Shown here one piece after another: positions 17,601 through 63,018 of a stretch of 64,000 bases of DNA; the first letter of the stretch is position 1, and every line of letters begins with the position of its first letter. Position numbers and translations under genes: made by a program. The notes beneath the pieces were generated by a model. That model did no database searches, was not told the origin of the DNA, and saw only the letters and a list, made by a program, of their open reading frames with translations. This DNA is from Bacteroidales bacterium (GTDB taxonomy: Bacteria > Bacteroidota > Bacteroidia > Bacteroidales > VadinHA17): assembly GCA_038252165.1 (NCBI GenBank), contig JBBSAP010000002.1, positions 51,892 to 115,891 of the forward strand, written 5' to 3'.

Positions 17601-18194
17601 TATTTCCATCTGCTCCATTGCCTTATCGAATTCACCCTTCCGGATAAGAATATCTGTAAGGTTAAGACGCGGGACAAGGTTTGCGGGCGCTTTTTCGACC
17701 AGAATATTAATATAATTCTCACGCTGTTTCTGTGAATCTATGTCAGGCAGGGTTGAAAACAATTCAGAAATTTCATAAAGTATTTTTACATGGTCGGGAG
17801 CAAATTCAAGGGCACTCTTAAGCTCTTTAATAGCCTTATCCCGTTCATTGTTCATCTTGAATACTGTGCCCAGTATAAGTCTTATGTCCGGATCTTTCGG
17901 ATCGATCCTGATTGCTTTGTTCAGCTCTTTTTCGGCTTCAGGGTATTTAGCCATCCTTAAGTAAGTCAGGCCGAGATTTGCATATCCAAACTTATCATTC
18001 GGTGCAAGATCAATAAAATTCAGGAATTCCTTTTCAGCCTCCTCCAGCTTAAACTCTTCAAGATAAGCCAGTCCAAGTGTTTTAGTTGTAATAAGGTCAG
18101 TCGATTTTTGTCCGGATTTTTCTCCACTGTTCCTGCACCCCGGAAATAATGAGATTAAAGCTGTGGTAAGTAATATGAAGTAACTCTTTTTCAT
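14616..18194 (-). CDS. Giant lipoprotein: N-terminal TPR repeats, FG-GAP/VCBS repeats, ASPIC/UnbV domain and a ~450-aa C-terminal region of unknown function
   Basis: 1192 aa. Lipobox LFPGC; TPR-like helices (residues ~40-230); many DxDxDGDxD blades; UnbV block NHYITMKLVG...GIGAKVEMRAG...IHFGIGSHSRADIIRIRWTNG; then an unassigned C-terminal region beginning SCPFLYGWNGEEYVF. Confidence 0.85.
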   Translation of the reverse strand: MKKSYFILLTTALISLFPGCRNSGEKSGQKSTDLITTKTLGLAYLEEFKLEEAEKEFLNFIDLAPNDKFGYANLGLTYLRMAKYPEAEKELNKAIRIDPKDPDIRLILGTVFKMNNERDKAIKELKSALEFAPDHVKILYEISELFSTLPDIDSQKQRENYINILVEKAPANLVPRLNLTDILIRKGEFDKAMEQMEIINKQFPEFPKEAVEYYNKTLSLLKKKDRENAIIQFTIFHNYLKVTSPYQAGIMDLKGPGGSLIGFPVITFDRQSSSSRKIENTSLLDIISYKDVSSAAGLDIVPRSEGSKNSEFRYSAHAEECDYDGDGDIDLYAGSYDPVSSSYKHFLFNNEMGKFTDVSEKAGLKHSGNESSAAFADYDNDGFPDLFVMKEGGDVLYRNTGNGTFVDVTDKAKAGSRTGGKKALFFDMDHDGDLDLFEILPNSNLLLRNNSDGTFEDQSAKLGPQNGGTISTGAAFGDFDDDDDIDFIVVNKNAGTSLYSNQRQGVFKDIAAESGLAGNEGAGAVAAGDYNNDGYLDLFIGSVTGGNHSLLRNQRNGTFEKEKNTAEMFRSLEKVNVYDASFLDFNNDGFLDLMVAGESQERDGRGIYLYYNDGKGSFTNVSNLMPDDVKYGKQITIFDYNDDGDLDAVIAGLNGGISLLRNDGGNNNHYITMKLVGLRAGSAKNNHFGIGAKVEMRAGDLYETMVVTDPNIHFGIGSHSRADIIRIRWTNGVPQNIFMPGSDQALIEEQTLKGSCPFLYGWNGEEYVFVKDILWRSALGMPTGIMGGNTSYAFADASDDYLKIPGILKQNNGSYSIQVTSELWETIYIDKLELVAVDHPDSLDIFVPEQFGPPPFPGLKILTVKEKHIPVSAEDSDGNDVLYLISQKDDNYLSGFRSGKYQGITEMRDLIIDPGNIDVTGRLSLFMNGWIFPTDASINVAISQSDDIRVTPPLIQVINKNGGWESVSSSPGFPMGKDKTVIADLSGKFLTKDHRIRIRTNMEIYWDQIFFAEDLPDAPVVRSVLNPSSADLHYRGFSELFRKGSRYGPHWFNYSVVEKGPKWRDLSGNYTRFGDVLPLLSESDNKYIITNAGDETTINFNASTLPPLAKGWKRDFLIRSVGWVKDGDLNTAFGNTVLPLPFHGMKSYPPSETDKYPDDPELLKYNREYNTRVVTADEYLNALRGNSNIVIK

Positions 18195-18245
18195 GCCATC
18201 AAAATTAGCAAATAAAACTTTATAAAATCCCGGTTGGAAGTTAGG

Positions 18246-18406
18246 GATTCCTCATCCCGTCCCGAGTCCTCGGGATCGGGATTCGGAATGACACTGTTTT
18301 TATGGGAGTTTGGGGTAATCAAGGGAGATTAGCAATGGCTAATCTCCCTTGATTACCCCTTAACCAACCACCCAGGCCATGTCATTCCGAGCGTAAGCGA
18401 GGAATC
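18246..18406. repeat. Nested foldback element: GAGGAATC/GTCATTCCGA-type outer arms around a perfect 22-bp core hairpin
   Basis: Left arm is gattcctcatcccgtcccgagtcctcgggatcgggattcggaatgaca. The core is ggggtaatcaagggagattagc (18312-18333), loop aatg, then gctaatctcccttgattacccc (18338-18359). Right arm is gtcattccgagcgtaagcgaggaatc (18381-18406). The right arm overlaps the last codons and the stop of the SBP gene. Confidence 0.88.
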
Positions 18407-19515
18407 TTATTCCCCCCAGTTGTCGGCAATCCATTCATTGTTTTCATTATTTCGAATTTACCCATGCGGTTTCCTTTATCGTCAAACTGAATCAGCCCGG
18501 TTGTCCCTTTGTAACGGATCTGTTTCAGTGACTTCTGAATCATTTCACGGTCGTTTGTCCCAGCAGTTTTGATAGCTTCAATAAGAAGGTTCGTACCGTC
18601 ATAGGCGAATGATGCAGCCATACCTGGCATTTTATTATATGTTTTATGGTACTCCTTAAAGAATAAAAGGTTTTCAGGTCCTGACCAATCACCGGAAGGG
18701 ACAAAAAGAATATTGTCGTATTCCTGGATCTCCCTGGCAGTTAATTCATTTTCATCAAGGATCATTAATGATCCGTAAAGAGGGATTTTTATTTTCTTTA
18801 TTTTTAATTGATTCACTATCTCCTTTGATGCAGAAGGCTTGCAGAATAATACAATGCAATTTGCATCTGCCCTGGCGATCTTGTCAGTTAAAAGGTTAAG
18901 GTGCTGATTGTATTCATCATATGAGAAGTGAAGAGGATCTTGTTTTCCGGATGTTTTTACTGTTTTCATAAAGTTATCAGCTGCCAGTCTGGAATCATAA
19001 TCTTTTCCGGAAATCACTACTATGTTTCTGAATTTATGTTTGTTATAGATATCTTCGAACAGTGAAAGAGCCTGCTGGCGGTCATTCGGCACACAGTTAA
19101 AGAACCATGGAACAAAAGCCTGGGAGAGTGTCGGATCGCCCGACCATGCCGATATAAGAACTACTGTCGATTTTGTTGCAGCTTGTTCAACGAGGTGAGC
19201 ATTGCGTCCATCATGAAATCCAATAAGTGCCCATACTTTCTCATCAAAAATAAGGTTTACTGCCTGTTTTGATCCGGTTCCCCATGGGCCTTCCATGGAA
19301 CGAAAAACTAACTGAAACTTCTGGCCCCTCAGGCCGCCTTTTTCATTTGCATTTTTTATAGCCATTTCAGCACCATGCAAAGCTGAAGTATAGGTGCTAT
19401 CCTGAACAAGTAATCCGATTTTGATAGTCCGGGCATGATTTTCCGGATTCTGGGAAACAGCCTTGCCCGTAATGATAATTTCCAGAAGTATCAGAGTGAG
19501 GCAGACATAAAACAT
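18382..19515 (-). CDS. Exported periplasmic-binding-protein-fold solute-binding protein (Leu/Ile/Val-binding, Peripla_BP_6-like), no cognate permease nearby
   Basis: Signal peptide MFYVCLTLILLEIIITGKAVSQ, then IKIGLLV...GAEMAIKNANEKGGLRGQKFQLV, typical of type-I PBPs. The track start at 19611 reads through a repeat element, and the preferred ATG is at 19515. Confidence 0.75.
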   Translation of the reverse strand: MFYVCLTLILLEIIITGKAVSQNPENHARTIKIGLLVQDSTYTSALHGAEMAIKNANEKGGLRGQKFQLVFRSMEGPWGTGSKQAVNLIFDEKVWALIGFHDGRNAHLVEQAATKSTVVLISAWSGDPTLSQAFVPWFFNCVPNDRQQALSLFEDIYNKHKFRNIVVISGKDYDSRLAADNFMKTVKTSGKQDPLHFSYDEYNQHLNLLTDKIARADANCIVLFCKPSASKEIVNQLKIKKIKIPLYGSLMILDENELTAREIQEYDNILFVPSGDWSGPENLLFFKEYHKTYNKMPGMAASFAYDGTNLLIEAIKTAGTNDREMIQKSLKQIRYKGTTGLIQFDDKGNRMGKFEIMKTMNGLPTTGGNKIPRLRSE

Positions 19516-19518
19516 TTT

Positions 19519-19590
19519 TACCCCTAAATCCCCCAGGGGGGACTTAATTAAAAAACGATAATAAAAACCCCCCATTGGGGGGTAGGGGGT
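19519..19590. repeat. G5/C5 multi-hairpin element, type B
   Basis: tacccctaaatccccc-a-ggggggacttaattaaaaaacgataataaaaacccccc-att-ggggggtagggggt. It fills the whole DAHPS-SBP intergenic space and is homologous to 28844..28913. Confidence 0.85.
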
Positions 19591-19594
19591 GGTT

Positions 19595-20482
19595 TCAGGT
19601 AAATTGGACATTTATATTTTTATATATATCCCTCCCGACAGCCTGTGCAATTTTCTTAAGATCGGTCATCAGCCTTGTAAACTCATCCGGGCTGAGTGAC
19701 TGCTGGCCATCACATAAAGCTTCTTCTGGTTTATAATGCACCTCGATGATGAGGCCGTCGGCACCAGCTGCAATTGCAGCTTTAGCCATAGCAGGCACCA
19801 TCCACCTGTGGCCTGTTCCGTGACTGGGATCTACAAAAACAGGAAGATGGCTCAGATGTTTAAGCATGGGAACCGCGCTAAGGTCAAGAGTGTTCCGTGT
19901 AGTAGTTTCAAAAGTGCGGATACCACGCTCACACAGGATAACCTGATCATTGCCCTGGTTCAGGATATATTCAGCTGCAAGTAAGAACTCTTCTATAGTG
20001 GCCATCATACCGCGCTTCAGTAGTATCGGCTTCCGAAGCATCCCCACTTCTTTCAAAAGCGGGTAGTTATGCATATTCCTTGAGCCGACCTGTAAAATAT
20101 CAGCATATCCTGCAACAAGTTGAACAAGCCGGGTATCCATAACTTCGGTAACTATTGGCAAACCGGTTTCCTTTCTGGCTTCCGCGAGTAATTTTAATCC
20201 TTCCTCTCCGAGACCCTGGAAATTGTAAGGAGAAGAACGGGGCTTGAAAGCGCCCCCTCTCAGGATCATTCCGCCTGCTGACTTAACTGCTTTTGCTGTT
20301 TCCATCAGTTGTTCATTATTTTCCACCGAACAAGGTCCGGCAATTATCACAACCTCTGCAGACCCGATCCTTATTCCGTTCACATCCACAATCGTCGGAT
20401 CAGGTTTTGACTTTCTGTTTACCCTGACCGGGATAGAACATCCACCAATCACTGCAGGATCATTGTAATTATTTGATTCCAT
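19595..20482 (-). CDS. aroF: 3-deoxy-7-phosphoheptulonate (DAHP) synthase, type I-beta, stand-alone (no fused chorismate mutase or ferredoxin-like regulatory domain evident)
   Basis: 295 aa. [44 protein letters not shown] and [10 protein letters not shown] are hallmark I-beta DAHPS motifs (KPRS.PY.FQG distinguishes it from KDO8PS). Confidence 0.88.
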
Positions 20483-25684: not shown

Positions 25685-27118
25685 CTATTCAAGCTCTACT
25701 ATCTTCTCTTTAACATCAGTAATATGAACTGGGATAATAACCGGTGGTTTTTTTATTGCATCGGATACTATATTGTCGGGAACCAGTTCAGTGTTTTCGT
25801 GGCATCCTATACATCCGCGTCTTTCATTAGGACGTAACCATAACCATGAACACGGACTGCCGACAACATTGCCATCCTTATCAAGTGTCCTGATACGGAA
25901 TGGTGTGTCGGCTATAACTTTTAGCTGAAATGATCCGTCTTTTTCAACCTCAACCACTCCATATGTTGTATCAACGCCAAGCACCTCAATCTTAAGGGCT
26001 TTCCTTACGGAAGAGGAATTTTCCGGAAGAAATGGATCTCTGAAATTTATATCCTGGCACAAAAGCAAACCTGTTTTCACCTGCATATCCACTTCGCTGG
26101 GAAGTTTTTTTGGTCTTTCGTATGCTTCGACCTGGACGATATCAAGTATATGATAATCAGGATCATTATAAATTGCCTGCTCAAGCGATCTCTTTTCAGG
26201 ATCAAACTCATAAAGCGCAAAACGATCTGAATCAGATTTACGGTAGGATACAAGATATTTACCAGGACGGAGAGGGAGTACATTATGAAAATCTCCTGAG
26301 ATCCCTGATGTCAGGTCAGTTTTAGAATGCAATGGCCTTTTATAGTCTATTGAAACCAATCTGCCCGAGGTCGGGTTTTCATTATCAGATTCAACAAATA
26401 CAATCCTGCCATCTGCAGTTTCATGTGCGCTGCTTACCATGGGGCTTATCCCCGGACCCACATAGAACATATCGGCTTTGGTGCCATCAGGGCGCATAAC
26501 TATCAGCATAGGATCTCCCTGAACCGGCAATAATTGCTTTTTAACTGTAAGCAGCCTGCCATCTCTCAGGACAGTTGTTCCAAGATTGTCATCAGGGCTG
26601 AATGAGATCTGCCTGAGGTCGGAACCATCTGTATTGCATGTATAGAGGCAATGTGCTGACTTTACCGTATCATTAATTGTCAGCTTGCTGAATACAATTC
26701 GTCCACCGGGTACATAAGCCGGATCAGTACATTCTTCCCTGCCTGAAGTTATCTGCCTGTACTTAAGATTCTTCAGGTTCATTTCCCAGATCTGCCATGT
26801 GTCATTTTCCTTCTTCTGCCCTGCAAAGAGCATGAATCTTCCGTCATAAGATATTTCAGGGAAGCATGCTGAATGGAAATCTCCTGTCAGTGTTTTTTGT
26901 GAACCGGGTCTTCCTGTCTCGAGAGAACTGATCCTTGCGCCGGGTAAATAACTCCAGGATACCCCGCTTGAATAATCCGGAAGCTGCATATTTCCTGGAA
27001 CTTCCGTAAGGATCAGTGAATTATTTTCTGACGCCTTTTTACTGCACGACACAATTATCACACAAGCCAGGCTTACCAGAATAATTTCAGTTAAAATAAA
27101 TGTCCGCTTCATCATCAT
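25685..27118 (-). CDS. Lipoprotein with TolB/PD40-like beta-propeller and a C-terminal single CXXCH haem-c motif
   Basis: 477 aa. Lipobox IIVSC; PD40-like repeats (EISYDGRFMLFAGQ, YTCNTDGSDLRQIS, MRPDGTKADMF); C-terminal RRGCIGCHENTELVPDN. Confidence 0.65.
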   Translation of the reverse strand: MMMKRTFILTEIILVSLACVIIVSCSKKASENNSLILTEVPGNMQLPDYSSGVSWSYLPGARISSLETGRPGSQKTLTGDFHSACFPEISYDGRFMLFAGQKKENDTWQIWEMNLKNLKYRQITSGREECTDPAYVPGGRIVFSKLTINDTVKSAHCLYTCNTDGSDLRQISFSPDDNLGTTVLRDGRLLTVKKQLLPVQGDPMLIVMRPDGTKADMFYVGPGISPMVSSAHETADGRIVFVESDNENPTSGRLVSIDYKRPLHSKTDLTSGISGDFHNVLPLRPGKYLVSYRKSDSDRFALYEFDPEKRSLEQAIYNDPDYHILDIVQVEAYERPKKLPSEVDMQVKTGLLLCQDINFRDPFLPENSSSVRKALKIEVLGVDTTYGVVEVEKDGSFQLKVIADTPFRIRTLDKDGNVVGSPCSWLWLRPNERRGCIGCHENTELVPDNIVSDAIKKPPVIIPVHITDVKEKIVELE

Positions 27119-31070: not shown

Positions 31071-31189
31071 GGATCTAAAATAAAAACAATTAATGACTAT
31101 CTGTAATCATGAATAAAAATGGTAATGAATTCATTAACTTCATTATAATTTACTTTAATTTCTTATATATCAAATTGAGATTCCTCTTA

Positions 31190-31249
31190 TCTCCGCCATC
31201 AGGCGGAGCTATTCGGAATGACATGTCATTCCGAGCGTTAGTGAGGAAT
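31190..31249. repeat. Hairpin plus back-to-back GTCATTCCGA arms (core-less member of the foldback family)
   Basis: ctccgcc-atca-ggcggag, then attcggaatgaca|tgtcattccgagcgttagtgaggaatc. Confidence 0.8.
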
Positions 31250-31630
31250 CTCTATCTTAAATTATTATTGGTTCCCGATACTCATAAAAACTTTTTTCTA
31301 CCTTAATATTTATAAATCTCTTGTTGGCAATATAGTAATTTCCGGTTATTCTTTAATCAGTTTTTAAGATTATGGACTAAGGGCCGATATGTTTTTTATC
31401 ATAAAGCCACGGATATTAAACATCAGCAGCTGATAATCAGTTTATTCACGAAAATTTTTCCCCGGTTCTGACATGTTTTGCCGGTTCTTGATTTATTTTT
31501 TCAGAAGAATAAATTTAAATTTTGTTTTAATATGATTTTAATTTTTCTATATTTGATCTTTCGAATTTCAAATTTAGTTTGATTTTAGAATGAACCTTTT
31601 ATCTAACCTGTTTAACCAAAACAATTGACT

Positions 31631-47214: not shown

Positions 47215-47291
47215 TTACCCCCTTCCTAACCTTCCCCCACGGGGGAAGGAACTAATCATTTCCCCCTTGGGGGAAATAAGAAAGGGGGTAA
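47215..47291. repeat. G5/C5 multi-hairpin element, type A (second copy)
   Basis: Outer stem ttaccccctt (47215-47224) pairs with aagggggtaa (47282-47291). It encloses ccttccccc-acg-ggggaagg and atttccccc-ttg-ggggaaat. Confidence 0.85.
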
Positions 47292-47335: not shown

Positions 47336-49108
47336 ATGTTTAACAGATTAAAAATTAGTAAGGAAACAGATGTCTGGTATCTGCTGGCTTTCTTTTTTAT
47401 TCTGGCTTTCAGCTATTTTTACTGTTTTGGCGGTTATCTTCTCTTTTTTCAGGAACAGCAGTCATTGTTTCTTTATGACTCTGCCTATTTCCATGATTTT
47501 CTGATAAGACCAGGCGGATTTCTGGATCTGTCAGGGAAGTTTCTGACGCAGTTTTATTTTAGCAAATTCGCCGGCTCAGTAATTTTAGCTGTCGTCCTTA
47601 CACTTCCTGCTGTCGTTCTCCTGCACATAAACAGGAAACTTATACCCGGTGCAGGATTTTCAAATATTCTTCTGCTGATACCTTCCTGCATCATGCTGCT
47701 GATGCAGACCCACTATTATCACCTGATGATGTATAATCTTGGATTACTCTTTGCTTTGCTTTATTTCCTGCTTTCCGTATTATCAGATAAAAAGGCAATC
47801 CGTTACCTTGTACTGGTTCTGTTTCCGTTTTTTTATTACCTGACTGGTTCTTATGCACTGATCTTCTTATGTTTGTATATCCTCTATAACCTCTTATATA
47901 TTAAAGGTCCCCGGAAGTTTTACTTATCAATATTTTTATTGTCCGTAGCTGCACTCTCTTTAATATTATTCAAAAAGGTATTTCTGGTGCAGAGCATAAG
48001 CCAACTCTTCCTTTTCCCATTTCCATTCATTAATGACACTACCCATAAGGCACTGTTTTACTCCCTGACCGGCTATGTGATTTTGTATCCTGCACTTTGC
48101 AGGCTTTCTGGTTTGGTAAAACTGAAAAAGCTGAAAATCAGGTTAGTATGCCTGGTCCTTCCGGTTATCGTTTTTTCTTTGACAATTGTAATGCTGCTAA
48201 CAGGATATAATTCCCAGACAGCAAGGGTAATTAATCTTGAAAAACTTGCCTTTGAAGAAAAATGGAATGAGTTGATAGAATACCAGGAAAAATATCCTTC
48301 GGAGAATATGATTGGACAGTACTTCTATAATGTTGCTCTCTCTGAAACTGATCAGCTGTGCGACAGATTGTTTTACGGACGTCAGGATTTCGGCACAGGT
48401 TCTCTTTTCCTGGAATGGAGCAGTGAACATATTAATTGGGGAGCTTATTCTTTTTATGCCACCGGACTTATAAACGAAGCCCAGCGATGGGCCTATGAGG
48501 AAATGGTTGTTTACGGCCGATGTCCGCAGAATATGAAACTGCTGACAAAAACCAGTCTTATAACCGGTAATTACCGTATGGCGAAGAAATACACCGGAAT
48601 TTTGGGAAAAACACTTTTTTACAGAGCCTGGTCAAAAAAATATGAAAGAATGGCTGCAGACACTTCAATCATAAGGTCAGATCCTGAGCTGGGAATTAAG
48701 TTAAAGACTCTGCCGGGGGATGATTTTTTCATTCATCTCGAATCGCCCGAGGCTAATCTTCCACTGCTTGTTGATGAAAATCCGGAGAACAGAAGAGCTT
48801 TTGAATACCTGATGTCATGGTTGTTGCTTGGCAAGAATGTTGACATATTGGTGAATAATGTCAGGCTGATGAAAAATATGGGATACACCCGGATTCCCCT
48901 TCATATTGAAGAGGCAATTTTGATTTACTTTAACAGCCAGGGGAAGTTCCCTGATCTCGGCGGACTTACGATTAGCAACGAAACCAGGTTGCGGTTTAAC
49001 CAGTACTTTACAACCTATGTTCAGTCGCGGCAAAATCCTGCAACACTTAGAGAAAAAATGGAGAAACAATTCGGCAATACATTCTGGTATTATTTTCATT
49101 TTAAATGA
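47336..49108 (+). CDS. Large polytopic membrane protein with soluble C-terminal domain (DUF6057-like; assignment tentative)
   Basis: About 590 aa. About 9-10 hydrophobic segments in the first ~320 aa, then a helical soluble domain. The track start at 47267 is a TTG inside the repeat element, and the ATG (MFNRLKIS) is at 47336. Confidence 0.6.
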   Translation: MFNRLKISKETDVWYLLAFFFILAFSYFYCFGGYLLFFQEQQSLFLYDSAYFHDFLIRPGGFLDLSGKFLTQFYFSKFAGSVILAVVLTLPAVVLLHINRKLIPGAGFSNILLLIPSCIMLLMQTHYYHLMMYNLGLLFALLYFLLSVLSDKKAIRYLVLVLFPFFYYLTGSYALIFLCLYILYNLLYIKGPRKFYLSIFLLSVAALSLILFKKVFLVQSISQLFLFPFPFINDTTHKALFYSLTGYVILYPALCRLSGLVKLKKLKIRLVCLVLPVIVFSLTIVMLLTGYNSQTARVINLEKLAFEEKWNELIEYQEKYPSENMIGQYFYNVALSETDQLCDRLFYGRQDFGTGSLFLEWSSEHINWGAYSFYATGLINEAQRWAYEEMVVYGRCPQNMKLLTKTSLITGNYRMAKKYTGILGKTLFYRAWSKKYERMAADTSIIRSDPELGIKLKTLPGDDFFIHLESPEANLPLLVDENPENRRAFEYLMSWLLLGKNVDILVNNVRLMKNMGYTRIPLHIEEAILIYFNSQGKFPDLGGLTISNETRLRFNQYFTTYVQSRQNPATLREKMEKQFGNTFWYYFHFK

Positions 49109-49129
49109 ATCATACTGATTCCCTCTATA

Positions 49130-49465
49130 GGTGACATGTACTCACCACCGAGCCCCTCTTTTGGTGACATTTACTCACCCCCAACCCCCTCTAATGGTGA
49201 CATGTACTCACCCCAGAGTCCCTCTTATGGTGACATGTACTCACCCCCCAACCCCCTCTCTGCTGACGCAAAGAGGGAGCTTAAATCATCCACGATCTGT
49301 AATCTCCCCCTCTTTACGAAGTAGAGAGGGGGATTAAGGGGGTGAGTACCTGAAGAAAAGCAAAGAGGGGGTTGGGGGTGAGTACATGAAAAAAGAAGTA
49401 GAGCGGGGGAGGCTTAATCATGTACAGATTAAGCCCCTCCCACTACGGGGGAGGGGTTGGGGAGA
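49130..49465. repeat. Composite repeat block: four head-to-tail 33-nt units followed by inverted partial units and G/C-tract hairpins
   Basis: Units start at 49130, 49163, 49196 and 49229 (ggtgacatgtactcacc[cc..]a[ga]ccccctct.at). Inverted copies are agggggtgagtac (49336-49349) and agagggggttgggggtgagtacatg (49364-49388). Further hairpins are tccccctct/agaggggga, ggcttaatc/gattaagcc and cccctcc/ggagggg. Confidence 0.88.
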
Positions 49466-49472
49466 GGTCAGC

Positions 49473-49505
49473 CAAAAAAAAGAGACGCCCAATTTGGACG
49501 TCTCT
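49473..49505 (-). terminator. Rho-independent terminator of the minus-strand susC/susD pair
   Basis: On the minus strand: agagacgtcc-aaatt-gggcgtctct followed by tttttttt, about 30 nt after the SusD stop. Confidence 0.75.
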
Positions 49506-51354: not shown

Positions 51355-54300
51355 TTAGAGGCCAAAGGAAATTCCAAACAGGAATTGCTTTGTTGTAGGC
51401 CATGCACCTGAGTCGATTCCCATATTGATTGCTGAATTTGGAATCGCTATTTCAGGATCCAGTCCCGAATACTTGGTCATGGTAAACAGGTTGGAACCCT
51501 GGAAATAAAGCGTGACGGTACTGAATCTGCTATTCAGAAGCTTGTTGAAATCGTACCCGATCCGCAGGGTTTTCATGCGCAGAAATGAACCGTCTTCCAG
51601 AAAGGCAGTTGATGGCTCCTGGTGCGGGGTGTCATTCTGATAAATGATCGGCATTGTAGCATCTGCATTGCTCTTCAGGTACGGGCTTCCCCATGATTCA
51701 TAAAGCCTTCTGTGGCTTTTTCCTGACTCGAACTGGGTATAGTCAATAAACCTGCTGACATAGTTTACAACATCGTTCCCAACTGTTGCAAACAGAGTGG
51801 TCGAAAAGCTGAATCCCTTGTAACCCAGGTTTATACTGAGACCTGCAGTAAAATCAGGATGAGGAGATCCGATATAGGTACGGTCGTTGGCATCGATAAC
51901 ATTATCAGGTTCGCCGTTAGGACCGCTTACATCTCTGTATTTGAAATGTCCGGGTTTATTGTATGTACCGGCAGCTCCGAATGCCTTTGGCCAATTATCG
52001 GCCTCAGCCTGGGACTGGAAGATACCGTCAACAATATAACCAAAGAATTCAGGGAATGCTCTCCCTGTCTGTGTCCTGGTATAATACTTCTCACGATACC
52101 CTGATCCCTGGTAGAAGTCAGTTGCAACGTCGGTAAGTCGTACCAGCTCATTTTTATAAGTTGAGAATACAAGGTCTGCGCTATATGTAAAATCGCCGTT
52201 CATTGAACTGTTTGCGTATCCAAGCGTAAGATCCACACCGGTATTTTTCATCTCACCTATGTTGATAGATGGCCTGGAAGCAGTACCAAGTACCAATGGT
52301 AATTGTTTTGGATAGAGCATATCTTTTGTGCTGCGCTGCCAGACATCCAAAGCTAAGGTGAAGTTTTTGAGCAGGGTTGCATCAATACCAATATTGATCG
52401 TGGTGGTTGACTCCCATTTTACACTGGTGTTACCGAAGGTGGACTGATAGAATCCGGTATTACTAAAGGCTGTATTATTACCTGTCATACCATAACTTGC
52501 GCCTTCTTCGCTGTAGGCAAACATGGTATAAGGATTATAATTACCACCCATAGTACCACTCATACGGTCGTTACCAACTGAGCCATAACCTACACGTATT
52601 TTAAGTTCATTCAGCCAGTTTTTGGTTGAGGCCATAAAGCTCTCTTCGGATACTCTCCATCCGGCTGAGAATGCCGGGAAAATACCATATTTTTTAGTTC
52701 CGAAACGGGAGGATCCATCGCGCCTTACCACTGCTTCAAAAAGATACTTGTCAGCAAATGCATAATTTAAACGTCCGAACAGTGAGAAGAGGCTGTATGC
52801 ACTATTCCCGTCTGAGTTAGCTATACTACGCAGACCTGTATTCAGACTCATATAATTAACGTCCAGGAACGGGAACTCTGCCCTGCTTGCGGCCATAGAG
52901 GTGGAATTATTATCATAAGCTTCAGAACCGACAATGGCCTTAAAGCTATGCTCACCTGTTGTCAGTGAATACTCAAGTGTATTTGTCCATGTCCAGTTCA
53001 GACCGGAACCGGCATTTTTAGTGTAGCTGTCATAAGTTCCTCTTTCTGCAGCAGCAACCTCAACAAATCCAAAACTCCTTTGATTATAGCCATACTGATT
53101 AATACCAATAAGGGTTTTGGCTGACAATCCTTTCAGAATGTTCAACCTGGCGAAGGCATTGCCACTGAAGTTCATCCGCTTGTAGAAATTGTACTGATTC
53201 TTGTCAAGCAGGAATAGCGGATTCTGGGCGTTGCCCATACCTGATGACCTTGATCCGGCATAGGTTGTTCCTGATTCATCATAGACAGGCACTGTTGTCG
53301 GGAGCCTGTAACACCATGAGACGATCGAAGATTCGCCGTTGTCTGTCTGATGTCCATGATCATTAGTGAACTGCACTCCCACATTCGTACCCAGATCGAT
53401 CCATTTTGCCGGGGATGTTGTAATATTTGAACGGAAACTATACCTTTCAAAACCAGTATATTTAAAGATTCCTTCTTCATCGGTGTAGCCAAGAAGAAAT
53501 GCGTAGGTAGTATTCTGAGAACCACCTGCAATATCGAGGGTATACTCCTTGAGTGCTGCGTTCCTCGTTGTTTCACCAAACCAGTCGGTGCCAGGACTTG
53601 CTCTTGCAATAAGGTATGTATCGTCTCCATCCCGAACAGCCATCTTATTGTCATATAATGACATGTCGGCAAGCGGCGATCCCTGCGCAGCCGCAGTGGG
53701 GAAGATATAATAAGGAATCACAGGTGCGGCACCGTTGCCAAACTGGGTATGCTTATAATTTTTAGGATCGGATGGTTGACCAATCGGCAAACCGGCATTC
53801 TTAGCCTCGAGCCAGAGCATATCAGCCCATTCCTGGGTATTCAGCAGACTGTAAAATTTTCCAGGTCTGGAAATACCCTGCCGTATGTTCAGATTCATGG
53901 TGACTTTCTGGTTTTTCTTACCTGCCTTGGTTGTGATAAGCACAACGCCGTTGGCAGCCCTTGCACCATAAATTGATTGCGCCGCAGCATCTTTTAATAT
54001 AGATATGGTTTCAACATCATTGGGTGAATAAGATCCGCCAGGCACACCATCAACAACATAAAGAGGGTTGGCATCGTTAATGGTTGTCATACCACGGATC
54101 CTGATAGAAGATCCTTCACCCGGGGTATGCTGGTTGAGTATTGTCACCCCGGCTACTTTACCCTGAAGACGGGTAATCGGGTCAGTAGCGGCACTTTCAG
54201 AAAGTGAAGCCGCATTAACCTGTGAAACAGCACCTGTAAGAGATTTCCTTGCCTGGGTTGAATAACCAACAACCACAATCTCATCAAGTTTTGTTTCGGC

Positions 54301-59994: not shown

Positions 59995-60377
59995 TCACCT
60001 CACTATAATCCCTCTCCCGAAAGAGAGGGATTTTTTATAATAGTGACCTTAAAGCCCCTTCTGAGCTACTCTTTATACTCATCTTCTCGGTGTAGAATCA
60101 GAGTATTTGATGGAGATTCCTCGCTAACGCTCGGAATGACAGGGGATTTTTTGTGAACGTGGGAAAAAGCGGCGATTTGCAGTGAATACTCAATTTACGT
60201 TGCTGGTTTTATTTTGCAAATCGCCGCTTTTTCCCCTTGACTCCCAAAATCGTACCTGTCATTCCGAATCCCGAGTCCTCGGGATGAGGAATCTCATTCA
60301 TAAACAATTACACCTGATTTTGAAATGATGTGTATAAAGCCCTTTCTCATCTAGGAGAGGGATTTAGGGTGAGGTGG
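59995..60377. repeat. ~380-bp imperfect long palindrome (foldback/MITE-like) with GTCATTCCGA-family inner arms and a perfect 21-bp core hairpin
   Basis: Outer ends are tcacctcactataatccctctcc and ggagagggatttagggtgaggtgg. The arms share ctttatac[at]catc...gagattcctc. Inner arms are gattcctcgctaacgctcggaatgaca (60115-) and tgtcattccgaatcccgagtcctcgggatgaggaatc (-60293). The core is gggaaaaagcggcgatttgca (60161-60181) paired with tgcaaatcgccgctttttccc (60215-60235). Confidence 0.85.
60007..60037 (+). terminator. Rho-independent terminator after 59216..59974
   Basis: atccctctc-ccgaaa-gagagggat followed by tttttt. Confidence 0.7.
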
Positions 60378-62880: not shown

Positions 62881-63018
62881 AGGATTGCTTCCCACGCTTT
62901 GCGTGGTCGCAATGACACTGCACTTCTGCAGCATTACTTGTATTTCAGTAAACCAATTTGACTTATGTCCGCTGTCATTGCGAGGAGTCCCGGTTAACCG
63001 GGACGACGAAGCAATCCT
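62881..63018. repeat. Foldback element of the GTCATTGCGA/GAAGCAATCC variant
   Basis: Left arm is aggattgcttc-ccacgc-ttt-gcgtgg-tcgcaatgaca. Right arm is tgtcattgcga-ggagtcccgg-ttaa-ccgggacgac-gaagcaatcct. A ~45-nt unpaired core separates them. It lies between convergent genes. Confidence 0.85.

Follow-up and report, generated by a model that had tools for sequence, protein, structure and literature searches.

CGTC-tagged repetitive extragenic palindromic (REP) sequences carry an unpaired CGTC tag, with TGTC and CCTC variants, next to a stem of 8–9 bp that has A-T pairs at positions 1 and 2 and a loop of 4–5 nt or longer (Di Nocera et al. 2013, BMC Genomics 14:522, PMC3733652). They occur mostly as head-to-head dimers with 20–100-bp spacers that may hold stem-loops, at times overlap the ends of open reading frames (ORFs) and can supply their stop codons, have no dedicated transposase, and are present in five phyla, including Bacteroidetes; dRS3 of Neisseria and RPE-4 and RPE-6 of Rickettsia are members (PMC3733652). 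dRS3 contains a longer oriented motif, the NTS, with the sequence CGTCATTCCCGCGMAVGCGGGAATCYRG (Chenal et al. 2025, Nat Commun 16:2388, PMC11893778). NTS-like sequences, termed Ssn-related motifs (SRM), flank ssnA, which encodes a single-domain GIY-YIG protein of 94 aa; SsnA binds the hairpin as single-stranded DNA only, and only on one strand, and binds neither RNA nor duplex DNA; its cut lies a few nucleotides 5' of the motif, with cutting governed by the GTC that precedes the palindrome and binding by the C that follows it (PMC11893778). Here we describe an inverted pair of hairpins at positions 18246–18406 of a 64-kb stretch of DNA from a Bacteroidales bacterium (hereafter, the window), which is probably a head-to-head dimer of an oriented hairpin repeat that belongs to a single superfamily comprising the CGTC/TGTC-tagged REPs and the NTS/SRM sequences, and that is recognized by an Ssn-type nuclease. 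How the units are built and covary, how their two strands differ, what has happened at the orthologous site, and which GIY-YIG genes elsewhere are flanked by such units were computed here, whereas the biochemical activity of SsnA on the NTS is taken from the literature.

The sequence-only reading had described this locus as inverted arms surrounding a unique, perfect 22-bp core, and everything that it said of the sequence there is correct; no second copy of the core occurs in the window, even when 3 mismatches are allowed. The left and right arms are one and the same unit in opposite orientations, the only difference between them being how long the inserted apical stem-loop is. In particular, all eight units that we recognize in the window (Table 1) consist of a TGTC tag, an AT-led 5-bp stem (ATTCC/GGAAT, or ATTGC/GCAAT in pair 4), a 2x2 G-A/G-A internal loop, an apical hairpin, and a C. 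In the short units (1R, 2R and 3L) the 5-bp stem, the GA/GA positions, and 2 further bp enclose a 4-nt loop, giving 9 positions of which 2 are non-Watson–Crick, and the other five units contain apical inserts of 15–29 nt. The stem starts and ends with AT in all eight, and in all eight a GTC just 5' of the palindrome and a C just 3' of it give the unit an orientation. When folded as a single strand, unit 1L forms the basal 5-bp stem, the 2x2 GA/GA loop, and an apical stem, at −15.1 kcal/mol (z = −3.5). The arms are not the ends of a transposon; each is a self-contained hairpin.

Table 1. Positions of the four unit pairs, the palindromic cores, the spacers, and the overlapping gene in the 64-kb window
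Feature	Coordinates	Strand	Description
Unit 1L	18246..18293	-	GATTCCTC...TCGGAATGACA; minus strand reads TGTC-ATTCC-GA-[29-nt apical hairpin]-GA-GGAAT-C
Spacer, unit 1L head to core 1	18294..18311	.	few G on the unit's own strand
Palindromic core 1	18312..18359	.	22-bp arms 18312-18333 / 18338-18359, 100% complementary, 4-nt loop
Spacer, core 1 to unit 1R head	18360..18379	.	orthologous to the 20 nt after unit 1 in L121 and L122
Unit 1R, short form	18380..18406	+	TGTCATTCCGAGCGTAAGCGAGGAATC; TGTC-ATTCC-GA-GC-GTAA-GC-GA-GGAAT-C
Peripla_BP_6 periplasmic substrate-binding protein gene	18382..19611	-	Pfam E = 4.8e-32; domain ends at about residue 383-390 of 409
Unit 2L	31179..31223	-	25-nt apical insert; sequence match
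Unit 2R, short form	31224..31250	+	abuts unit 2L head to head, spacer 0
Unit 3L, short form	60115..60141	-	sequence match
Palindromic core 2	60161..60235	.	21-bp arms 60161-60181 / 60215-60235, 33-nt loop
Unit 3R	60257..60293	+	apical hairpin ATCCCGAGTCCTCGGGAT, related to that of unit 1L
Unit 4L	62883..62917	-	stem variant ATTGC/GCAAT (compensatory change); sequence match
Pair 4 spacer	62918..62972	.	structure limited to a small stem-loop of 5 bp at one end
Unit 4R	62973..63016	+	same ATTGC/GCAAT variant; sequence match

The three further copies that had been reported in the window are all present. The copy at 60115–60293 does carry a different perfect core, of 21 bp, and the variant-arm copy placed at 62881–63018 exists at 62883–63016. 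The copy reported at 31211–31249 is also real, but those limits take in only the abutting inner halves of a pair that extends in full from 31179 to 31250. All four pairs are intergenic and have their heads facing each other, with spacers of 0, 55, 86, and 115 nt. The 11-mer TGTCATTCCGA, when up to 1 mismatch is allowed, occurs 9 times in the window against an expectation of 1.18, and none of 100 shuffled sequences reached 9. A candidate for a further unit, TGTCATTCTGA at 51630, lies inside a gene and has no matching tail; we take it to be a chance occurrence.

The resemblance of these units to the NTS and to SRM sequences extends to an AT-led palindrome (ATTCC...GGAAT) with YGTC on its 5' side and C on its 3' side, to their presence in multiple intergenic copies, and to a layout that is matched base for base except in the interior of the stem. 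At that position the units considered here, which we refer to as GA-type, have the G-A/G-A internal loop where the NTS has C-G pairs, and their apical part is a hairpin ranging from a 4-nt loop to about 60 nt. The setting differs too, as the 64 kb contain no ssn gene and the host is an uncultured, Bacteroidales-like organism rather than a proteobacterial symbiont. With the CGTC-tagged REPs the units share the TGTC tag, A-T as the first two pairs of the stem, a loop of 4 nt where the unit is short, an arrangement as head-to-head dimers in which some spacers are structured, overlap with ORF ends, and the lack of an associated transposase, and Bacteroidetes and Chlorobi are among the hosts reported for those repeats. 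Compared by text description, the two differ in the tail of the unit, which is C followed by TC or CT here and CCA there, and in the many long apical inserts of the GA-type units.

The stems of the units covary. Apart from the variant in pair 4, stems in sequence fetched elsewhere also begin with ATCCT, ATTTC, ATTCT, or ATCCC, each with its complementary partner, and a head was joined by the matching complementary tail in 41 of 64 cases for CCT, 33 of 57 for CCC, 38 of 53 for TTC, and 35 of 45 for TCT. The 5' strand of the stem is pyrimidine-rich in every variant. Internal mismatches in the apical stems, read on the YGTC strand, comprised nine G:T and no A:C, and the G-A/G-A loop becomes T-C/T-C on the opposite strand. 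By crude gene calling, single units lay in the sense orientation relative to flanking genes 26 times and in the antisense orientation 33 times, which amounts to no orientation bias. Taken together, the bias towards G:T, the G-A loop, and the lack of a sense or antisense preference suggest that the structure is selected on one strand of the DNA and not in a transcript. A single-stranded DNA target would fit these patterns better than an RNA target, and the units resemble the NTS in showing signs of a strand-specific function that does not involve RNA.

The pair might nonetheless act in RNA, as classical REPs can, by serving as an mRNA 3' terminator, a 3'-end protector, or a brake on translation, with the core serving as a terminator-like hairpin for which structure rather than sequence is selected. 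A stop codon immediately precedes the element, and the conserved motif found upstream of the next gene comes after it, single units fall between convergent genes more often than between divergent ones (26 versus 13, with the same crude gene calling), the cores vary in sequence yet stay hairpins, and many CGTC-tagged repeats have been argued to be transcribed (PMC3733652). However, no T-run terminator was predicted within 18000–18600, and Rfam searches of the whole window at the gathering threshold and of 18200–18450 by E-value returned only chance miRNA-like matches on the palindrome. The sense and antisense counts given above, the perfect Watson–Crick pairing of the core stems, which contain no G-U pairs and so point to maintenance at the level of DNA, and the failure of SsnA to bind RNA (PMC11893778) likewise argue against this alternative, which we regard as unlikely. 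An RNA role, in which the stop codon is buried in the stem, may accompany recognition by an Ssn-type nuclease as a secondary effect. A literature search with the raw sequence strings matched only primers.

Clustering of ORFs across 120 genome loci revealed small GIY-YIG ORFs overlapping units, and a profile search of approximately 2 Mb found five small GIY-YIG ORFs, of which four lie no more than 200 nt from units and three (L129, L137, and L161) have units on both sides. In all, at four loci, from Chitinophagales (L129), Acidobacteriota (L137), Gammaproteobacteria (L161), and Chitinophagaceae (L258), a GIY-YIG gene is preceded by a forward GA-type unit and followed by a reverse one, so that GA-type units flank small GIY-YIG genes in inverted orientation just as the NTS-like motifs do. 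The flanked ORFs, at about 82–114 aa when counted from start codons, match PF01541, those of L129, L137, and L161 at E = 1e-14 to 1e-12; NCBIfam gave no specific match to these proteins. When loci were picked by similarity of the GIY-YIG protein alone, YGTC-tagged hairpins adjoined the gene at six of six, and at L253 canonical NTS sequences are present on both sides of it. At E ≤ 1e-10, at least 1,906 proteins belong to the small GIY-YIG family; the members listed are 97–167 aa in length, and most of them 100–116 aa. Many of the homologues are on contigs of 500–2000 bp, as expected if the flanking repeats break metagenome assemblies. At L161 (1786–1812) some 6 nt separate the tail of a unit, GGAGGAATC, from the ATG of the GIY-YIG gene that it precedes, for which the unit may double as the ribosome-binding site. 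A query of the YhbQ type found no GIY-YIG match in viral loci.

A small gene for a single-strand-specific enzyme flanked by its own repeats is also a feature of classical REP sequences and REPINs, which are mobilized by RAYTs, transposases of the IS200/IS605 Y1 type. The likeness extends to the architecture of REP, BIME, and REPIN sequences, namely a tag next to an imperfect palindrome, inverted doublets that can fold into one long hairpin, and a location after genes. That the repeats described here are mobilized in this manner is nevertheless extremely improbable: their tag is YGTC (TGTC in the window) and not GTAG, the gene that units flank encodes a GIY-YIG protein and not an HUH Y1 enzyme, no Y1_Tnp domain was found among the window ORFs scanned, and no Y1 transposase flanked by CGTC repeats was found in the earlier survey (PMC3733652). 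Moreover, REPs are lineage-specific, whereas the GA-type motif is near-identical across many phyla.

Unit 1R also overlaps the end of a gene. The ORF for the periplasmic substrate-binding protein (Table 1) ends ...GGNKIPRLRSE*, and, as had been read from the sequence, its last 8 codons (KIPRLRSE) and its TGA lie inside the unit, the TGA being the complement of the TCA at 18382–18384 within the right arm. The accompanying claim that the native 3' end had been replaced by the element is misleading, as at least 43 of 120 orthologs end in unit-encoded residues, with tails of the form ...(K/E)(N/K)EIPR* or ...NEIPRLRSE*, because they have the same unit at the same position. The orthologs, at 54–66% identity, retain synteny with the TPR/FG-GAP gene. 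Those free of the unit stop at ...GVPxSSE*, such that the unit adds about 9 residues, and on a rough tree the unit-encoded tail underwent at least 19 changes of state. The shared tails and the repeated changes argue against a recent replacement; the overlap with the gene end is old, shared, and unstable, having been repeatedly gained, lost, or decayed. The ORF of the binding protein measured from the first ATG (window 19576–19611) encodes 409 aa, and an identical database protein (P0001) has 397 aa; the true start is probably 12 codons downstream of that ATG.

Orthologous loci, three of which came from a metagenome scan, preserve several states of the site. L250 has no unit, and the conserved upstream motif of the next gene follows directly after the stop codon. 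L121 and L122 have unit 1 and 20 nt beyond it, with neither core nor unit 2. At L249 (1694–1752) a hybrid of unit 1 and unit 2, GATTCCTCGCTTACGCCCGGAATGAGGAATC, is joined at an ATGA microhomology, consistent with a deletion that would have removed both heads, both spacers, and the core. Both units are present at L248, L251, L123/L247, and L124, and among L248, L251, and L123 the units and the spacers of about 19 nt beside their heads are conserved while the core differs. No target-site duplications were seen at the orthologous sites, nor any around the cores that were consistent from core to core. Directly before the start of the TPR/FG-GAP gene, the sequence GTTTTATTTGYTAATTTTGAYGGYATG (window 18195–18225) is conserved at all of the orthologous loci, including the unit-free L250. 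TAATTTTG fits the Bacteroidetes −7 promoter box TAnnTTTG, which would imply a very short leader.

These states bear on the resemblance to a MITE (a miniature transposable element bounded by inverted repeats) or foldback element that the sequence-only reading had proposed, in which the whole 161-bp block would be a non-autonomous element, with the arms as its terminal inverted repeats and a cassette-like core, that had inserted at the 3' end of the gene. Inverted arms do surround variable cores or spacers at four sites, all of them intergenic. Yet the arms are complete hairpin units that are also found singly, in tandem, and tail to tail; L121 and L122 have unit 1 in the absence of the core and unit 2; L248 and L251, when compared with L123, keep the units and spacers and replace the core; the unit at the gene end is common to at least 43 of 120 orthologs; and no target-site duplication was seen. 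Since the parts are present independently of one another at orthologous sites, the block of 161 bp does not constitute a single mobile element. The MITE or foldback interpretation is thus largely refuted, and we consider it highly improbable.

Other than cores 1 and 2, the 64 kb contain no perfect short-range inverted repeat of at least 20 bp. Both cores are single-copy there and absent from 251 fetched loci. Each is placed 16–21 nt from either head, and the cores start with GGG or GGA and end with CCC or TCC. Across the orthologous site overall, three unrelated palindromes and one loop inversion are found between units and spacers of about 19 nt that are kept, which supports the earlier claim that the cores are interchangeable: orthologous loci retain the arms and swap the core. 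The core of L248 is a perfect palindrome of 23 bp. L248 (2655–2891) and L251 (3787–4010) share the same 22–23 bp palindrome with the 4-nt loop inverted (ACCA versus TGGT), in sequence terms the signature of a flip between the arms of a palindrome. The L123 core is a 135-nt composite that includes a repeat of the CACCCCCCAACCCCC type, also found in the window at 47215–47291 and 49234–49378, and a similar motif is present in the core of L247.

A second repeat family occupies two intergenic regions of the window (49100–49480 and 47215–47291), where direct copies of about 33 nt, GGTGACATGTACTCACCCC(CC)AACCCCCTCT, are followed by inverted copies, AGAGGGGG..GGGGGTGAGTAC; the hairpin at 47215–47291 is related to this family.

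The arrangement recalls the mosaic elements of Neisseria (dRS3-RS-dRS3; NIMEs), in which conserved short inverted repeats likewise bracket many unrelated inserts of 20–200 bp, drawn from repeated RS families, and the sites remain syntenic from genome to genome while what lies between the repeats varies. In the window, by contrast, there are single dimers and not long arrays, the inserts are perfect palindromes that occur once each in the window, and the units are ATTCC-GA-N(4-29)-GA-GGAAT or ATTGC...GCAAT and not the ATTCCC-N8-GGGAAT of dRS3. NIMEs have been stated to be absent outside Neisseria; dRS3 serves as an integration site for Nf phages, and a recombinase specific for dRS3 has been put forward as the builder of the mosaic arrays (PMC1797815). 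The units could by analogy be docking sites for a recombinase, the cores being scars or remnants of elements that had been inserted and excised. The behavior of dRS3 lends this idea some support, as do the replacement of the core at the orthologous site, the presence in the L123 core of a repeat family that also occurs in the window, and the abundance of units on viral contigs. On the other hand, no recombinase or integrase was found near the units among the ORFs scanned in the window, the 120 genome loci showed no enrichment of such a gene family around their units, and the cores have no shared ends beyond GGG...CCC. We therefore judge docking by a recombinase to be very unlikely.

The cores could stem from the fold-back repair of nicked DNA, from small mobile elements that are palindromic, or from selection for a hairpin. 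Two specific routes were rejected: Ssn cut sites would not coincide with the core boundaries, the published cut being a few nucleotides 5' of the tag as against about 19 nt here, and a fold-back duplication of the whole dimer does not account for two spacers that are not complementary. It is conceivable, although we think it unlikely, that head-to-head SRM pairs in this Bacteroidales lineage are hot spots at which perfect palindromes of 21–23 bp are made and replaced. Such hot spots would fit the location of both of the window palindromes within pairs, the swapping of cores between retained units, and the constant offset of 16–21 nt; a single-strand nick by Ssn in the spacer, followed by fold-back (snap-back) synthesis, is a possible route by which the palindromes might arise. 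If true, this would be NIME-like cassette turnover outside Neisseria with a defined enzymatic cause.

A number of observations weigh against the assignment of the pair to a superfamily of repeats recognized by Ssn-type nucleases. The degenerate search sequence published for SRM, HGTCWYN(0-2)YYVSBRHN(0-5)WNVSBRGN(0-2)RNCYNB (PMC11893778), fails to match any of the eight window units or any of 581 GA-type units. As controls, the repeats of L253 and L256 and the NTS consensus do match it, and the GA-type units escape it because their G-A positions and long apical inserts violate the pattern. With hmmsearch at E values up to 10, the window contains no Ssn-like ORF, and a comparison of its 30 larger ORFs with Pfam revealed no transposase or recombinase family. 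The partner proteins in the published system belong to CDD family cd10448, and the flanked GIY-YIG proteins elsewhere were placed by Pfam PF01541. Tail-to-tail pairs outnumber head-to-head pairs by 128 to 34 in the wider sample, whereas mostly head-to-head dimers were reported for the CGTC-tagged repeats. A model of a nuclease and its hairpin leaves the long, perfect palindromic cores unexplained, and among the 22 head-to-head spacers that measure at least 40 nt only 6, most of them from this lineage, contain a perfect repeat of at least 10 bp. The cleavage predicted for these units, finally, is drawn from the literature on SsnA.

Units of this type are widespread. The refuting observation that had been named for the arms, that they are not repeated elsewhere, does not apply: the pattern TGTCATTCCGA-N(6-36)-GAGGAATC, searched for in IMG/VR and in species-representative genomes, is present in at least 120 viral stretches and at least 120 genome records. 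About 20 phyla are represented among the matches listed, which include Acidobacteriota, Chloroflexota, Bacteroidota, Verrucomicrobiota, Planctomycetota, Nitrospirota, Proteobacteria, Firmicutes, bacteria of the candidate phyla radiation, and one Nanoarchaeota metagenome-assembled genome (MAG), among others. We estimate that chance would yield about 130 matches to this 19-nt gapped pattern in 596 Gb. However, about half of the inner segments pair immediately to form a stem, compared with about 5% for random sequence, and 66 of 120 genome loci have two or more units, indicating that most of the matches are real despite the number expected by chance. Elsewhere the units are arranged singly, in tandem, tail to tail, and head to head, and clustering of the ORFs around units on viral contigs was dominated by related phages; around the units of the 120 genome loci no recombinase or integrase family was enriched, as noted above. 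All but one of the 120 genome matches listed (L125–L244) are MAGs, the single isolate being Pontibacter roseus DSM 17521 (L235); this excess may reflect the make-up of the collection or a concentration of the subtype in rarely cultured lineages of soil and sediment. In a Dehalococcoidia MAG (L141, 6240–7150), units in both orientations and a perfect 12-bp hairpin are repeated in tandem about every 329 bp, in an array reminiscent of BIMEs or NIMEs.

Elsewhere in the window, the ORF at 25685–27118 matches the middle domain of the hydrazine synthase alpha subunit (PF18582, E = 1.7e-18). The operon to which it belongs also contains genes for binding proteins, a DAHP-synthase-like gene, and a gene for an L-PSP protein, and the cluster is syntenic in all relatives examined.

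We propose the following account of how the pair would function as a target of an Ssn-type nuclease. When the DNA becomes single-stranded, for example during replication, repair, or DNA uptake, the strand 5'-TGTCATTCCGA...GAGGAATC-3' would fold into the hairpin, and a cognate single-domain GIY-YIG Ssn nuclease would bind it and nick a few nucleotides 5' of the GTC tag. We infer that this organism encodes such a nuclease and that the copies described here are cut by it. In a head-to-head pair the predicted cut sites of both strands would fall inside the spacer, a possible reason for the spacer being the part that varies. The repeats would spread and persist together with SRM-ssn-SRM modules and accumulate downstream of genes, where they would make their surroundings prone to recombination, in keeping with the swapped cores, the deletions, and the gains and losses at the orthologous site. 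The overlap with a stop codon would be a by-product of a unit sitting at the end of a gene.

The identification of these elements mostly removes a mystery, in that the arms would belong to a repeat already known, for which an enzyme partner has lately been identified, and not to a new mobile element. As the GA subtype escapes the published pattern and yet is found on many viral contigs and in MAGs assigned to about 20 phyla, the reach of the Ssn/SRM system may be far greater than has been described. In gene calling, these repeats will continue to give rise to "...EIPR*" and "...EIPRLRSE*" tails, as well as to spurious small ORFs. The series of states at the orthologous site, with no unit, one unit, a hybrid, or two units around different cores, provides a natural time course of how a gene end and the adjoining intergenic region are remodelled.

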